Source: a virus (taxonomy: Duplodnaviria; Heunggongvirae; Uroviricota; Caudoviricetes). Taken from it: a stretch of 5,418 bases of DNA. This document shows, piece after piece, positions 1-5,418 of this stretch (position 1 is its first letter; every line of letters begins with the position of its first letter). Location: the IMG/VR virus record IMGVR_UViG_2541047960_000010; one strand, written 5' to 3'. A model generated the notes under the pieces. The model ran no database searches and was not told where the DNA came from. It worked only from the letters and a program-made list of their open reading frames with translations. Position numbers and translations under genes: made by a program.

Positions 1-1143
1 CTATGCTGTTTTGATATCTACGATAATCCAGTCTTTACCACGATCATCATTGTATCGGTCGGTCATTTTTCTGGATTTATGGCCTAACAACTTTTGCGTA
101 TCCAGACCCTGTTCCCGATATAACCGTTCTGACAGAGATCGCTGCTCATGAAATGTGGGCGCAGTTCCTGGCTCCCATTTTATGCCACATTTTTCCCTGG
201 CCTTTTTAAAAGCCGTTGTAAGAGTATTTGCAGAAACCTGGTCTCCTCTGTTTGCTTGAGAGGTAGTGTGACGGTAATGGACCAGATATTTACTAACAAC
301 AGCATCCCTGCACTGAGATATAACTTCACGAAGGGTAATATTTAGAGCATCGCATTTCAGGCTAAGCGGAATAGCAAGTTTTGAACCGGTTTTTTCCTGA
401 GTAATGTGCAACATGTCGTCCCATATATCAGAGAATTTCAAATTGCAGATATCGCCTAAACGTTGTCCAGTAACAAGAGCAAGTAGCATGCCGCATTTTA
501 AATAGGGCTGCCGTCTGCTTACGCTTTCAAATATTGCCTGCCATTCGGGCAGTGATAATCTTTGGCGGTTTACTCGATTTCGCGGTTGTTTTGTTGCCTG
601 CGCTGGGTTAAATCCTGGCGGAACATGTCCTGCGTGTTGTGCTTCTTTGAAGACGTCGATCAACACCATTCTCACGACTTGCGCCATCCTGTTATGACCT
701 TCAGCCTTTACAGCATCAATTATTTCGGCAATATCAAGTGCGGTAATATCCTTGAGGTGTTGCATTCCACAATGCTCACGGAAAAGACGAATGGGTTTAC
801 CTTTTTGCCGATAGGAGTTGGGTTTTAGTTCATTATGTTGCAGCCTGTCCTCCTGGATAGAAATATATTTATCAAGCCATTCTGTCACCGTAATGTCTGA
901 GCGCCTGCCTTTCATTCTTTCTAGACGCTCATTGACGCTTAATATTTGTCGGGTACGTTGTTCAGCAATAATGGTATTTGCTTCAGTAGCAACTTGTTTT
1001 GCTTCATTCTCATCAGTTCCTAAGCTATGAAAACGACCGGATAGTGGATGTTTGTATTGCCAATATACCTTTCCGGTTCGCTTATCTAATTTGCAATATA
1101 AATTGGGTATAGAGATTTTGTGAGATCGGGGTCTAGCAGCCAT
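1..1143 (-). CDS. int: Lambda-family tyrosine integrase (site-specific recombinase), complete; stop codon at window bases 1-3
   Basis: 380-aa ORF. N-terminal arm-binding-like region (MAARPRSHKISIPNLY...) resembles lambda Int (MGRRRSHERRDLPPNLY...). Catalytic signature in lambda-like context: Arg in LVTGQRLGDI, His-x-x-Arg in FHEQRSLSERL, and LLGHKSRKMTDRY carrying the nucleophilic Tyr. Start overlaps the upstream xis by 11 nt, as is typical for xis-int pairs. Clearly divergent from lambda Int, so a different att specificity is expected. Confidence 0.9.
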   Translation of the reverse strand: MAARPRSHKISIPNLYCKLDKRTGKVYWQYKHPLSGRFHSLGTDENEAKQVATEANTIIAEQRTRQILSVNERLERMKGRRSDITVTEWLDKYISIQEDRLQHNELKPNSYRQKGKPIRLFREHCGMQHLKDITALDIAEIIDAVKAEGHNRMAQVVRMVLIDVFKEAQHAGHVPPGFNPAQATKQPRNRVNRQRLSLPEWQAIFESVSRRQPYLKCGMLLALVTGQRLGDICNLKFSDIWDDMLHITQEKTGSKLAIPLSLKCDALNITLREVISQCRDAVVSKYLVHYRHTTSQANRGDQVSANTLTTAFKKAREKCGIKWEPGTAPTFHEQRSLSERLYREQGLDTQKLLGHKSRKMTDRYNDDRGKDWIIVDIKTA

Positions 1144-1369
1144 CAGCGATTATCCGTTGGAGTTTTGGGTTTGCGTTTATTGGGAGTTGCGGTTCTGCAA
1201 GCGTTCCTACAAAACGGGAATTTCGGTCAATCATCCAGTAGCGACCAACTTTTATAGCGGGTGGGGCCATCATTTTCCCTTGCGCGTATTTTTTCAGAAC
1301 TCGCTCACTTGGTGCTAAGTCCCCAAATTCTTCTTTAGCCCAGTCCTGTAAAGTGATTAGTCGAGACAT
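1133..1369 (-). CDS. xis: Excisionase, lambda Xis-like winged-helix directionality factor
   Basis: 78-aa ORF immediately upstream of and overlapping int. N-terminus MSRLITLQDW and PPAIKVGRYWMI parallel lambda Xis MYLTLQEW and PPPVKDGREYLF. Strong RBS (AGGAGG, about 5 nt before the ATG at 1369). Confidence 0.75.
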   Translation of the reverse strand: MSRLITLQDWAKEEFGDLAPSERVLKKYAQGKMMAPPAIKVGRYWMIDRNSRFVGTLAEPQLPINANPKLQRIIADGC

Positions 1370-1508
1370 TTGTCCTCCTCTTAGCTGCTGAGGGAGTTTG
1401 TGACCGATATATCTGACATGATATTAAGCTCATGGCAGGTACATCTCTTGACTGGTCATAGAGATAAATTTAATGCTGAGAAATGCAGTATTGAATTTAT
1501 CAATTTTT

Positions 1509-1748
1509 CTATTTCCTGCGTATGGCACGTAACTTCTTAATGTGTTCTGCTGTATCGATCTCTTCGGCTATCCGATCTGCATCAGCTTTATTCACAGGTT
1601 CAAAGTCATGATTAAAGCGGAACATGCTGGCGATACATGTTCTGCCTTTTTGGATGTAGTGAACTTTGTTGTGGGTAGAACGCAGGATTTTGCAGGGAGT
1701 GCCGTGGTGGTCGACGTACCAGGTGTTAGGAAAAATGATTCTGAACAT
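1509..1748 (-). CDS. Hypothetical small protein (79 aa), accessory early-left cargo
   Basis: Open frame with an ATG at 1748 preceded by GAGGTG at about 6 nt; same orientation as the operon and tightly packed (47-nt gap to the upstream gene). No family recognised from the sequence alone. Confidence 0.5.
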   Translation of the reverse strand: MFRIIFPNTWYVDHHGTPCKILRSTHNKVHYIQKGRTCIASMFRFNHDFEPVNKADADRIAEEIDTAEHIKKLRAIRRK

Positions 1749-1795
1749 TTTTACACCTCAGTTGGACGATGTTGAAATTTGCTGCTTTGAGGCCA

Positions 1796-2014
1796 TTACA
1801 ATCCCCATTGTTTGTTCTTAAGTTCGATCTCCTCCTGGCAACTTGCACAAGTCCGACAACCCTGAACGGCCAGGCGTCTTCGCTCATCTATGGGATCGCC
1901 ACACTCACAACAATGAGTGGCAGATATAGCCTGGTGGTTCAGGCGGCGCATTTTTATTGCTGTGTTGCGCTGTAATTCTTCAATTTCTGATGCTGAATCA
2001 ATGATGTCTGCCAT
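1796..2014 (-). CDS. DksA/TraR-family C4 zinc-finger protein (phage TraR-like regulator of host RNA polymerase)
   Basis: 72-aa ORF with a Cx2C-x(17)-Cx2C motif (CCECGDP...GCRTCASC) near the C-terminus, preceded by a helical N-terminal region. Size and motif arrangement match F-plasmid TraR and the lambda orf73 type. Confidence 0.8.
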   Translation of the reverse strand: MADIIDSASEIEELQRNTAIKMRRLNHQAISATHCCECGDPIDERRRLAVQGCRTCASCQEEIELKNKQWGL

Positions 2015-2073
2015 CTTCCATTAATCCCTGAATTGTTGGTTAATACGCTTGAGGGTGAATGCGAATAATAGAA

Positions 2074-2092
2074 AAGGAGCCTGTAGCTCCCT
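2074..2092 (-). terminator. Candidate intrinsic terminator or attenuator hairpin on the leftward transcript
   Basis: Minus-strand RNA reads AG-GGAGC-UACAG-GCUCC-UU followed by a U-rich tail (UUCUAUUAUU): a 5-bp GC-rich stem extendable to 7 bp with one G-U and one A-U pair, 5-nt loop. It sits 21 nt downstream of the 71-aa ORF stop and before the TraR-like gene. The stem is short, so this is weak. Confidence 0.25.
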
Positions 2093-2112
2093 GATGATTT
2101 TGCTTTTCATGT

Positions 2113-2328
2113 TCACCGTTCCTTAAAAACGCCGTTTAACATGCCGATCGCTAGGCTTAAATGAGTCGGTGTGAATCCCATCAGCGTTACCGTTTCGCGG
2201 TGCTTCTTCAGTACGCTACGGCAAATGTCATCGACGTTTTTATCCGGAAACTGCTGTCTGGCTTTTTTGATTTCACAATTAGCCTGACGGGCAATGCTGC
2301 GAAGGGCGTTATTATGTTCTATTGTCAT
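2113..2328 (-). CDS. Hypothetical small protein (71 aa), immediately downstream of the TGT-fold gene
   Basis: The six-frame track gives a 117-aa ORF (2113..2466), but its first 46 codons overlap the end of the 250-aa gene in another frame. The internal ATG at 2328 sits 7 nt after that gene's stop with GAGG spaced 5 nt (TGAGGCCAAT-ATG), so the 71-aa product MTIEHNNALRSIARQ... is the better model. Confidence 0.5.
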   Translation of the reverse strand: MTIEHNNALRSIARQANCEIKKARQQFPDKNVDDICRSVLKKHRETVTLMGFTPTHLSLAIGMLNGVFKER

Positions 2329-2335
2329 ATTGGCC

Positions 2336-3088
2336 TCACACTTCGAATGCCAGCTGAGGGGTAAAGACGTCCCGTTCAGCGTTGTAATTAAGTGAACTGG
2401 CACTGTTGAATGATTCAATGCGTTCCACAAGAACTTGCGTACGGGTTTCTTTACTTGCGGGAGCATATGGCGAACCTACCCAGGATTTGTCGATGCCTAT
2501 ATTTCTTGCGACGTTCGTGCTGTCTGCAGACGAAAGCGGTACATGAGTAAAAATGTCTTTATTTAACATCCGTAACCCATGAATCTTGGTGATTGGGTAG
2601 CCGTACTGATCTACAACATGACGTATAAGATCGCGTAGTTTAGCCCGACACGCTCTCGGTCGTTTTGCATCGTATTCCCCCATCGAGCCGATGCAGACGC
2701 GGGGAAACTCATGGCACAGACGAATAAATCGCTCATCTGGTTCGTTCATGTGCCACACCGGAGCACCAATAAATTTACCGTGAGGCCATGCCGCAATCAG
2801 GGCGTCATTCTCTTCACTGGTTCCGCCGATAACATCCGGGATAACCGCGAATGAGAAACGAGGGTGATTACCCCAGCGTTCAACAAATCTGTAATATTCA
2901 TTCCAGTCTACGGCCTTGTTTTTTGTCCAGAATGTGAATGCACCATTATCAAGAGCAAATGATTGGGTGACTTCGGAAGCCAGATCAATCTGAGCTGGAT
3001 TAGCAAAACTGATGAATGCGTGTCTGCCTTTCCAGGCTTTCAACGCACAGGTATCGGGAGTTATTGGACCACCGTGAAAATGAATCAT
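2336..3088 (-). CDS. TGT-fold (tRNA-guanine transglycosylase superfamily) protein lacking the zinc subdomain; putative DpdA-like DNA 7-deazaguanine transglycosylase
   Basis: 250-aa ORF, RBS GGGAGAG before the ATG at 3088. Motifs line up in order with the TGT TIM-barrel active-site elements of Zymomonas TGT: FALDNGAF vs LTDSGGYQ (Asp102 region), AVIPDV vs MAFDE (Asp156 region), CIGSMGEY vs AVGGLAVGE, and SSADSTNVARNIG vs MFDCVLPTRSGRNG (nucleophile Asp280 region). No CxCxxC...H zinc motif. The CDS call is solid; the functional assignment is by motif only. Confidence 0.6.
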   Translation of the reverse strand: MIHFHGGPITPDTCALKAWKGRHAFISFANPAQIDLASEVTQSFALDNGAFTFWTKNKAVDWNEYYRFVERWGNHPRFSFAVIPDVIGGTSEENDALIAAWPHGKFIGAPVWHMNEPDERFIRLCHEFPRVCIGSMGEYDAKRPRACRAKLRDLIRHVVDQYGYPITKIHGLRMLNKDIFTHVPLSSADSTNVARNIGIDKSWVGSPYAPASKETRTQVLVERIESFNSASSLNYNAERDVFTPQLAFEV

Positions 3089-3243
3089 ACACTCTCCCGT
3101 TTATTATTTATCTCCTCAGCCAGTCGCTGGGCTTTCAGCGGATTTCGGATAACAGAAGGCCCGGGAAATACCCAGCCTCGCTTTGTAACGGAGTAGACGA
3201 AAGTGATCGCACCTACCCGGATATTATCGTGAGGATGCTTCAT
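3085..3243 (-). CDS. Small ORF (52 aa) translationally coupled between exo and the TGT-fold gene; in the position of lambda orf60a
   Basis: Not in the supplied ORF track (too short). Its ATG (3243..3241) overlaps the exo stop as ATGA, and its TGA (3087..3085) overlaps the next gene's ATG as ATGA. Translation: [52 protein letters not shown]. An in-frame ATG two codons upstream (3249) is an alternative start. Confidence 0.5.
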
Positions 3244-3920
3244 CGCCATTGCTCCCCAAATACAAAACCAATTTCAGCCAGTGCCTCGTCCATTTTTTCG
3301 ATGAACTCCGGCACCATCTCGTCAAAACTCGCCATGTACTTTTCATCCCGCTCAACCACGACATAATGCAGTCCTTCACGCTTCATACGCGGGTCATAGT
3401 TGGCAAAGTACCAGGCATCTTTTCGCGTCACCCACATGCTGTACTGCACCTGGGCCATGTAAGCTGACTTTATGGCCTCGAAACCACCGAGCCGGAACTT
3501 CATGAAATCCCGGGAGGTAAACGGGCATTTCAGTTCAAGGCCGTTGCCGTCACTGCATAAACCATCTGGAGAGCAGGCGGTACGCATACTTTCGTCGCGA
3601 TAGATGATCGGGGATTCAGTAACATTCACGCCGGAAGTGAACTCAAACAGGGCTCTGGCGTCGTTCTCGTACTGTTTTCCCCAGGCCAGCGCTTTAGCGT
3701 TAACTTCCGGAGCCACACCGGTGCAAACCTCAGCAAGCAGGGTGTGGAAGTAGGACATTTTCATGTCAGGCCACTTTTTTCCGGAGCGGGGTTTTGCTAT
3801 TACGTTATGAACTTCTGAAGCTGTGATGACGCCGAGCCGTAATTTGTACCACGCATCATCCCCCTGTTCGACAGCTCTCACGTCGATCCCGGTACGCTGC
3901 AGGATAATGTCCGGTGTCAT
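3240..3920 (-). CDS. exo: Lambda exonuclease (Red-alpha), 5'-3' dsDNA exonuclease
   Basis: 226-aa ORF whose translation ([24 protein letters not shown]...[11 protein letters not shown]) matches phage lambda Exo in length and nearly residue for residue, as recalled. Start ATG overlaps the bet stop (ATGA). Confidence 0.95.
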
Positions 3921-4702
3921 GCTGCCACCTTCTGCTCTGCGGCTTTCTGTTTCAGGAATCCAAGAGCTTTTACTGCTTCGGCCTGTGTCAGTTCTGACGA
4001 TGCGCGAATGTCGCGGCGAAATATCTGGGAACAGAGCGGCAATAAGTCGTCATCCCATGTTTTGTCCAGGGCAATCAGCAGAGTGTTAATCTCCTGCATG
4101 GTTTCATCGTTAACCGGAGTGATGTCGCGTTCCGGCTGGCGTTCTGCAGTGTATGCGGTATTTTCGACAATGCGCTCGGCTTCATCCTTGTCATAGATAC
4201 CAGCAAATCCGAAGGCCAGGCGGGCACACTGAATCATGGCTTTATGCCGTAACATCCGTTTGGGATGCGACTGCCACGGGCCGGTGATTTCTCTGCCTTC
4301 GCGGGTTTTGCATGGTTCGCGGCGGCATTCATCCATCCACTCGGTAACGCAGATCGGATGATTGCGGTCTTTGCGGTAAATCCGGCATGTACATGATTCA
4401 TTGTCCTGCTCAAAGTCCATACCATCAAACTGCTGGTTTTCATTGATGATGCGGGACCAGCCATCAACGCCCACCACCGGAACAATGCCGTTCTGCTTAT
4501 CAGGGAAGGCGTAAATTTCTTTCGTCCACGGATTAAGGCCGTACTGGTTGGCGACGATCAACAATGCGATGAACTGCGCATCGCTGGCATCACCTTTAAA
4601 TGCCGTCTGGCGAAGAGTGGTGATCAGTTCCTGTGGGTCGACAGAATCCATGCCGACACGTTCAGCCAGCTTCCCTGCCAGCGTTGCGAGTGCTGTACTC
4701 AT
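3917..4702 (-). CDS. bet: Lambda Beta (Red-beta) single-strand annealing protein
   Basis: 261-aa ORF ([59 protein letters not shown]...) matches lambda Bet in length and sequence as recalled. Sits between gam and exo as in lambda. Confidence 0.95.
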
Positions 4703-4707
4703 CCGTT

Positions 4708-5004
4708 TTATACCTCTGAATCAATATCAGCCTGATGGTGAGCAATGGTTTCAACTATGTACCGGATGTGTTCTGCCATGCGCTCCTGAAACTCAACATC
4801 GTCATCAAACGCACGGGTAATGGCTTTTTTGCTGGCCCCGTGGCGTTGTAAATGATCGATGCATAGCGATTCAAACAGGTGCTGGGGCAGGCCTTTTTCC
4901 ATGTCGTCTGCCAGTTCTGCCTCTTTCTCTTCACGGGCGATCTGCTGGTAGTGACGCGCCCAGCTCTGAGCCTCAAGACGATCCTGAATGTAATAAGCGT
5001 TCAT
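4708..5004 (-). CDS. gam: Gam, host RecBCD nuclease inhibitor (short 98-aa form)
   Basis: 98-aa [24 protein letters not shown]... matches the C-terminal 98 residues of lambda Gam. RBS AGGAG 7 nt upstream of the ATG. The region upstream still encodes ...IFRSSAM in frame (lambda has ...YFRSSAM) but is closed by an in-frame TAA at 5061..5059, so only the short form can be made. Confidence 0.9.
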
Positions 5005-5079
5005 GGCTGAACTCCTGAAAATGGCTGTGAAAATATCGCCCGCGAAATGCCAGGCTGATTAGGAAAACAGGAAAGGGGG

Positions 5080-5223
5080 TTAGTGAATGCTTTTGCTTGA
5101 TCTCAGTTTCAGTATTAATATCCATTTTTTATAAGCGTCGACGGCCTCACGAAACATCTTTTCATCGCCAATAAAAGTGGCGATAGTGAATTTAGTCTGG
5201 ATAGCCATAATTGTTTGATCCAT
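5080..5223 (-). CDS. kil: Kil, host cell-division (FtsZ) inhibitor, 47 aa
   Basis: The supplied 87-aa ORF starts with a TTG and its first 40 codons are the cIII region read in another frame. From the internal ATG at 5223 the product [47 protein letters not shown] matches lambda Kil (47 aa) as recalled. AGGAG lies upstream. Confidence 0.85.
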
Positions 5224-5343
5224 TTTTGGGGACTCCTGGCTGATTGAGTATGTCGATAAGGCGTTTCCATCCGTCACGTAATTTACGGGTGATTCGTTCA
5301 AGTAAAGATTCGGAAGGGCAGCCAGCAACAGGCCACCCTGCAA
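5192..5343 (-). pseudogene. cIII: cIII remnant: 5'-truncated by IS insertion, start codon and RBS lost
   Basis: Minus-strand frame overlapping the kil start translates to [50 protein letters not shown]-stop, which matches lambda CIII from residue 5 to the end (lambda begins MQYAIAGW...). Upstream of the Ile codon the sequence becomes the IS terminus, and no ATG, GTG or TTG exists in frame before the upstream stop at 5371..5369. The junction position is uncertain by about 1 nt. Confidence 0.7.
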
Positions 5344-5418
5344 TGAACCGCCCCGGGAATCCTGGAGACTAAACTTCCTGAGAAAGAGGTAAACAGGATG
5401 ACTAAAAATACTCGTTTT
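5344..5418 (+). mobile_element. Left end of an IS3-family insertion sequence (IS629 / IS1203 / IS3411-like), continuing beyond the window
   Basis: Sequence from 5344 (TGAACCGCCCCGGGAATCCTGGAGACTAAACTTCCTGAGAAAGAGGTAAACAGG-ATG...) matches my recollection of the IS629-group terminal inverted repeat (IS3-family 5'-TG terminus) followed by the orfA RBS and start. It begins exactly where homology to lambda cIII stops. Confidence 0.75.
5398..5418 (+). CDS. IS3-family transposase OrfA, N-terminal 7 codons only (truncated by window end)
   Basis: ATG at 5398 preceded by AAGAGG at about 8 nt. Encodes MTKNTRF, the characteristic N-terminus of IS629-group OrfA (MTKNTRFSPEV...). Confidence 0.7.

Follow-up and report, generated by a model that had tools for sequence, protein, structure and literature searches.

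The left end of an IS629-like element inside cIII of a lambdoid prophage remnant, and its probable origin in IS-mediated erosion

The stretch of DNA analysed here (5,418 nucleotides, hereafter the window) carries int, xis, the exo, bet, gam and kil genes and a truncated cIII of a lambdoid prophage, and its last 75 bases belong to an insertion sequence. The window is an exact substring of the draft scaffold KE702656.1 (GCA_000461795.1; locus L005), in which a run of 1653 Ns starts directly after the last base of the window; the scaffold was identified through the Bet protein encoded in the window. The sizeable open reading frames with matches to known genes are all located on the minus strand, and so are all the genes annotated in Escherichia coli CE10 under the window's match, in agreement with an earlier sequence-only reading in which every gene of the window was described as leftward. 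The first complete gene leftward of the IS end is kil. The features of the window are the following:

1-1143, minus strand: int (open reading frame list and CE10 annotation)
1133-1369, minus strand: xis (open reading frame list and CE10 annotation)
between xis and the exo region, minus strand: several small accessory genes (open reading frame list and CE10 annotation)
3240..3920, minus strand: exo, intact (open reading frame list, CE10 annotation, PF09588)
3917..4702, minus strand: bet, intact (open reading frame list, CE10 annotation, PF03837)
4708..5004, minus strand: gam, intact (open reading frame list, CE10 annotation, PF06064)
5080..5223, minus strand: kil, 47 amino acids, intact (open reading frame list; the CE10 equivalent is annotated as 'host cell division inhibitory peptide Kil')
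5192..5345, minus strand: putative cIII pseudogene, which retains codons 5-54 with the stop codon and, of codon 4, its last base (translation of the frame)
5311..5345, minus strand: putative 3' remnant of the cIII thermoregulator RNA, about 35 of 59 nt (by comparison with the RF01804 element of CE10)
5344..5368, plus strand: left terminal inverted repeat (IRL) of an IS629-like IS3-family element, beginning with TG (TGAACCGCCCCGGGAATCCTGGAGA; the same as the IRL of CE10)
5369..5397, plus strand: leader of the IS, with a Shine-Dalgarno-like AAGAGG at 5384-5389 before orfA (read from the sequence; the same as in the CE10 copy)
5398..5418, plus strand: first seven codons of orfA (MTKNTRF), ended by the edge of the window, where the scaffold gap begins (start of the annotated CE10 coding sequence)

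Two minor features accompany these genes. A terminator-like hairpin is positioned between kil and gam (window 5038-5055, minus strand; GCCTGGCATTTCGCGGGC followed by a T-rich tail); chance alone would produce about 0.7 such sites in the stretch. An open reading frame of 250 amino acids (window 2336-3088, minus strand), with the DUF1317 gene on one side and the small accessory genes on the other, gives a match to the profile phrog_887, 'queuine tRNA-ribosyltransferase', with an E-value of 4e-99 over profile positions 11-266 of 509. Searches with this reading frame gave no Pfam match and no sequence match to any solved structure. Its product may be a DpdA-like DNA 7-deazaguanine transglycosylase that occurs without preQ0 synthesis genes.

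The bases from 5344 to 5418 are identical at 75 of 75 positions to the first 75 bases of a complete, 1310-bp-long element of E. coli CE10 (L002 11864-13173), and they cover the left inverted repeat, the leader and the first seven codons of orfA. The left end of an IS3-family, IS629-like element and the start of its orfA had been recognised at 5344-5418 from the letters alone, and the alignment confirms this assignment and places the first base of the IS at 5344. A comparison with related prophages had been proposed as a check, and CE10 provides a full IS in which the 25-bp left repeat agrees with the right repeat at 23 of 25 positions and the orfA frame continues. The terminal repeats characteristic of the family, approximately 25 bp long, imperfect and of the form 5'-TG...CA-3', are thus present when the right repeat is taken from the CE10 copy. 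The ATG at 5398 corresponds to the start of the coding sequence of the IS3 family transposase in CE10 (L002 11918), for which PGAP/RefSeq gives the label IS3 family transposase with programmed frameshift. The CE10 copy matches NCBIfam NF033516 with 314 bits, contains the ALIL frameshift pseudoknot RF01497 (120 bits), and encodes the domains rve (PF00665) and HTH_Tnp_1 (PF01527). The -1 programmed frameshift between orfA and orfB and the DDE (rve) transposase are present in the CE10 copy; the window displays seven orfA codons of its own copy, identical to the annotated start.

The nucleotide identity of the CE10 copy to the O157:H7 copies annotated as 'IS1203 family' is 96.0-96.3%; the annotated O157 copies serve here as a proxy for the ISfinder references of IS629 and IS1203. 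Isoforms are defined in ISfinder by a nucleotide identity of at least about 95%, and the identity to the named IS629/IS1203 copies exceeds this value. Bases 1-795 of the CE10 element are identical to a part of an H107 element annotated as 'IS629 family', which suggests that the element is a mosaic. Judged by these identities, 'IS629-like' is a fair name for it. The element is found in 4264 of 5426 complete E. coli genomes, and since it is so common in the species and the match of 75 bases is exact from the terminal base, the match is not due to chance. Similarity to phage records (lambda-like and phage 21-like) extends from base 1 to 5345 of the window and no further. It overlaps the IS by two bases, 5344-5345, because the dinucleotide TG fits cIII and the IS end alike. 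Microhomology-mediated joining through the shared TG was considered and rejected, as an overlap of two bases is within chance (1 in 16).

IS and phage DNA meet within the cIII gene, at codon 4/5. IS sequence stands in place of codons 1-3 and of two bases of codon 4, which leaves the cIII of the window without a start codon, a ribosome-binding site and codons 1-3. Across the junction, marked by a vertical bar, the frame reads ...SPGFPGRF|IAGWPVAGCPSE...YGYPD. A stop interrupts it within the IS, eight codons upstream, and none of the start codons ATG, GTG and TTG follows in the frame after that stop. An intact cIII start elsewhere had been named as an observation that would speak against the IS, and the window has no such in-frame start. 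The IS had also been placed directly upstream of kil. It is indeed on the promoter-proximal side of kil-gam-bet-exo, but the junction interrupts cIII rather than a spacer.

The intact cIII gene of CE10 occupies L002 11192-11356, and its start is spanned by a match to the lambda cIII thermoregulator (Rfam RF01804, 88.5 bits, L002 11311-11369). An Rfam search of the window gave no match at all, even at E<=1. Because the start codon, the ribosome-binding site and the thermoregulator are all missing, we infer that cIII is dead and persists in the window as a pseudogene.

The window corresponds to CE10 positions 6001-11343 joined to 11864 onward (L002), with only two base differences over 5.3 kb. 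Compared with CE10, exactly 520 bp are absent beside the left repeat of the IS. The missing segment contains cIII codons 1-4 and the cIII leader, a 369-bp gene with a DUF2528 domain (ea10-like), and a terminator-like hairpin (L002 11845-11824). CE10 and IAI39 have near-identical prophage remnants with the same IS and the same right flank; they represent a lineage that we take to be O7:K1 of phylogroup F, and not EHEC. The closest relatives, with two base differences over 5.3 kb, are all without an immunity region. The CE10-type left junction, which follows ea10 (...ATTTCCAATAATC|TGAACC), is kept in nine related loci, which indicates that the CE10 arrangement is ancestral and that of the window derived. 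The IS copy of CE10 is not flanked by a target duplication (ATC versus AAA), as would fit a deletion endpoint.

Among these relatives, the same IS is followed by at least five different right flanks, and in one locus (L011) the copy is inverted. The right flanks in L004, L007, L009, L010 and L011 (approximately 7530-8839) are a tail fibre gene, a gene for an EAL-domain protein near ymgF, or genes of a Mu-like prophage. Larger rearrangements in the lineage appear to have used the shared IS copy as a point of recombination. In L012 (approximately 8400-9240), the ea10-like gene runs into an IS1 within its 3' end, and Mu-like prophage genes come next; this is a further IS-bounded truncation of the same remnant. 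As read from these junctions, the boundary of the remnant is undergoing erosion and rearrangement by IS activity. Genomes of this lineage contain 26-39 places matching the IS, in contrast to a median of 3.

The exact junction of the window, searched for as a 34-base sequence, was found in 0 species-representative genomes and 0 metagenome contigs. It occurs in 0 of 5426 complete E. coli genomes and is known from one draft assembly. Similar insertions have arisen independently. In strain 53_142304 (L001 4309-5618, NZ_AP026095.1), an IS629 has entered cIII codons 2-3 by simple insertion with a TAT duplication; it lies 8 bp from the junction of the window and in the same orientation, and ea10 is intact on its far side. 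RefSeq still lists for this strain a 58-amino-acid 'cIII' that runs into the IS end. In O157 strain F8798 (L013), an IS629 copy is inserted inside the ea10-like gene and is flanked by a 3-bp ATT duplication. The two junctions 8 bp apart, within a small palindrome (TGCAAT...ATTGCA), prompted us to consider an insertion hot spot at the start of cIII. The idea was rejected, as this IS end is found within about 690 bp of cIII in only 7 of 5426 genomes, which represent three independent events.

The remainder of the window's IS copy, including its right end, lies inside the gap of 1653 Ns, and the end of the window is a repeat-induced scaffold gap. Past the gap, the scaffold resumes with ATGATGGGTGATGG...; in CE10, this sequence flanks the same IS on the right, beginning 2 nt beyond its right repeat, and the two are identical over 1780 nt. 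The order of genes is a truncated iss/bor gene (iss'), which reads leftward toward the IS, then a gene for a TonB_C protein, the small terminase subunit (Nu1), large terminase (terminase A) and lom fragments, and an invertase. In ET745, an intact relative at the same icd site, cIII is followed by the ea10-like DUF2528 gene, a hypothetical gene, N, a gene for a LexA-family repressor, cro, cII, O and P. The interrupted target does not resume past the IS of the window, where iss' and fragments of the late region occupy the place of the 5' end of cIII, ea10 and N; a second IS and the 520-bp segment could be hidden by the gap. If the scaffold join is right, then N, pL, cI, cro, cII, O, P and Q are absent beyond the IS. 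Adjacency across the gap comes from the mate pairs used by the assembler, with CE10 synteny as the only added support, and the absence of the control region was read from approximately 10 kb on each side of bet, long runs of Ns included.

The reading that we favour, with a probability of roughly 0.72, is that the left end of an IS629/IS1203-group element was brought to codon 4/5 of cIII by the IS-mediated loss of a further 520 bp from the remnant at icd. The host element would be a lambdoid (phage 21-like) prophage remnant at icd, belonging to the lineage that includes CE10 and IAI39. In an earlier event, marked by the same IS, a large deletion would have joined the ea10-like gene to the truncated iss/bor and taken N, pL, cI, cro, cII, O, P, Q and the lysis genes. 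Later, in the strain of the window, the 520 bp beside the left repeat would have been lost, a segment that held the ea10-like gene, the terminator-like hairpin, and codons 1-4 of cIII with its regulatory RNA. This loss may have occurred as a one-step IS-adjacent deletion, or in two steps, in which a further copy first entered cIII in the orientation of the old one and the two then recombined. Both routes would yield the same product and are therefore indistinguishable by sequence. It is likely that the gap holds a single IS copy. The remainder of one IS would fill 1237 bp, and a first IS, 523 bp with the 5' end of cIII and ea10, and a second IS would fill about 3070 bp; the estimate of 1653 Ns is nearer to the former, which favours one copy. 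With one copy or two, it is iss', and not pL, that lies beyond the gap.

A second IS copy nevertheless has to be weighed. In that case, a fresh simple insertion in cIII, with the target duplication CAA, would be positioned about 520 bp from an older copy of the CE10 type, and nothing would have been deleted with respect to CE10. The gap would hide the first IS, the 5' end of cIII with ea10, and the second IS, and iss' would still follow. The insertion in strain 53_142304 demonstrates that the site accepts the IS, and a unique piece of about 520 bp between repeats could presumably be dropped by an assembler. Furthermore, the gap length is unreliable, since a calibration on the sister scaffold revealed that the sizes of comparable gaps were off by about 460 to 1060 bp, all of them under-estimates. 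The length estimate nonetheless falls closer to the content of a single copy, and no contig bearing ea10 has been placed in the scaffold. We consider the presence of two copies unlikely.

It is very improbable that the IS is a single simple insertion in an early left operon that is otherwise intact and has pL, N and cI on the right of the IS, so that the IS would be polar on kil, the Red genes, xis and int in a prophage that could still be induced. Polarity of an IS with pL on its far side was the model proposed in the sequence-only reading, and it is correct that the IS end is real and located on the promoter-proximal side of kil; the arrangement also exists in strains 53_142304 and F8798. 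The model conflicts with the resumed scaffold, in which iss', the TonB_C gene, Nu1 and the terminase A and lom fragments follow as in the flank of CE10, instead of the 5' end of cIII, ea10 and N, and with the loss of the immunity region in all of the closest relatives. The least probable explanation is an assembly artefact, in which a multi-copy repeat would have been fused to unique phage DNA at a chimeric contig end, and the true structure would be that of CE10. The occurrence of the junction in one draft assembly and the large number of matching places per genome in the lineage speak for such an artefact. Against it, the break coincides exactly with the terminal TG of the inverted repeat, the site at which the transposase acts and where a chimera would rarely fall, and the 75 bases into the IS are without a mismatch.

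In phage lambda, transcription of exo, bet, gam, kil and cIII starts at pL and is subject to antitermination by N; int can be read either from pL or from pI, a promoter that depends on cII. The kil, gam, bet, exo, xis and int genes of the window are intact, but on the present reading they have been separated from pL and N, and they are probably silent. The predicted silence is attributable to the missing control region and not to polarity of the IS, for a correct scaffold join leaves no transcript from pL on which the IS could act. In the sequence-only reading, which holds in part, polarity of the IS would silence kil and might help to immobilise the prophage. The genes are probably silent, but through the loss of the control region, and the prophage was already immobilised because the immunity and replication regions and, within the fetched stretch, most late genes had been lost. 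An outward-reading promoter at the IS end, which had been suggested as a source of deregulation, was not detected in a scan of both strands for consensus sigma-70 sites covering window 4600-5418, the whole IS and the iss' side; the scan is crude, weak or hybrid promoters could escape it, and it is weak evidence against such a promoter.

The bor gene of lambda is expressed in lysogens. There is a slight chance that read-through from the iss/bor side across the IS provides low constitutive expression of the Red genes, under the control of neither N nor the repressor. With the 520 bp went the single strong terminator-like hairpin between iss' and kil, and kil-gam-bet-exo came to lie directly behind the IS. 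If such read-through did occur, the remnant would contain a domesticated recombination module in an IS-rich lineage, comparable to sbcA-activated recET. The recET genes of Rac are promoterless recombination genes in a cryptic lambdoid remnant and are activated by sbcA mutations. The window resembles Rac in having intact phage recombination genes in a defective prophage, severed from their normal promoter. In contrast to recET, which is activated by sbcA mutations, the Red genes of the window are described here from their sequence.

The event is of a known kind and can be regarded as ordinary IS-driven decay of a prophage. Sixty-two percent of the IS629 copies of O157 are located in prophages or prophage-like elements (PMC3271280), and IS629 has been tied to gene inactivation and genomic deletions (PMC9943667). 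The O157:H7 copies of IS629/IS1203 share with the present element the length of 1310 bp, the terminal repeats, the orfA/orfB frameshift layout and residence in prophages, whereas the present variant differs from them at approximately 50 bases and is labelled 'IS3 family transposase' only, and not IS1203. According to PMC9943667, which cites Ooka 2009 and Kusumoto 2011, IS629-adjacent deletions differ widely in size, the smallest being a few nucleotides and the largest more than 40 kb. Like the deletion proposed here, those reported deletions remove DNA adjacent to the IS and have one endpoint exactly at the IS terminus; unlike it, they accompany IEE-dependent excision of the IS, whereas the window keeps the IS end (PMC9943667). 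The position of IS629 in the Stx prophages phiPA2 and phiPA8 alters the function of phage genes (PMC10810198). There, as in the window, it depends on where the IS sits in a lambdoid prophage which gene of the phage is inactivated, but phiPA2 and phiPA8 are inducible prophages in which the effect was measured, and the window belongs to a remnant characterised by its sequence.

The main value of the analysis is a correct annotation of the locus, as an IS end that borders a scaffold gap and adjoins a putative cIII pseudogene. The prophage is best described as a non-inducible remnant, and to treat it as a regulated early operon cut by an IS would be misleading; the insertions in strains 53_142304 and F8798 illustrate what a simple insertion looks like when it is real. 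The remnant offers a small, clean example of stepwise, IS-driven erosion, with one shared IS junction, varied far flanks, an IS1 cut in ea10 and the additional loss of 520 bp, and it does not challenge current understanding. A second full, 1310-bp copy of the same IS is located on the scaffold of the window at L005 16896-18205, between icd and rluE, where it interrupts a DUF8209 gene. Comparison of its flanks (GCATGC|IS|TTTTGG) with the empty site in L003 (GCATGCCTTTTGG) reveals no 3-bp duplication and the loss of one C, which is atypical for the family.
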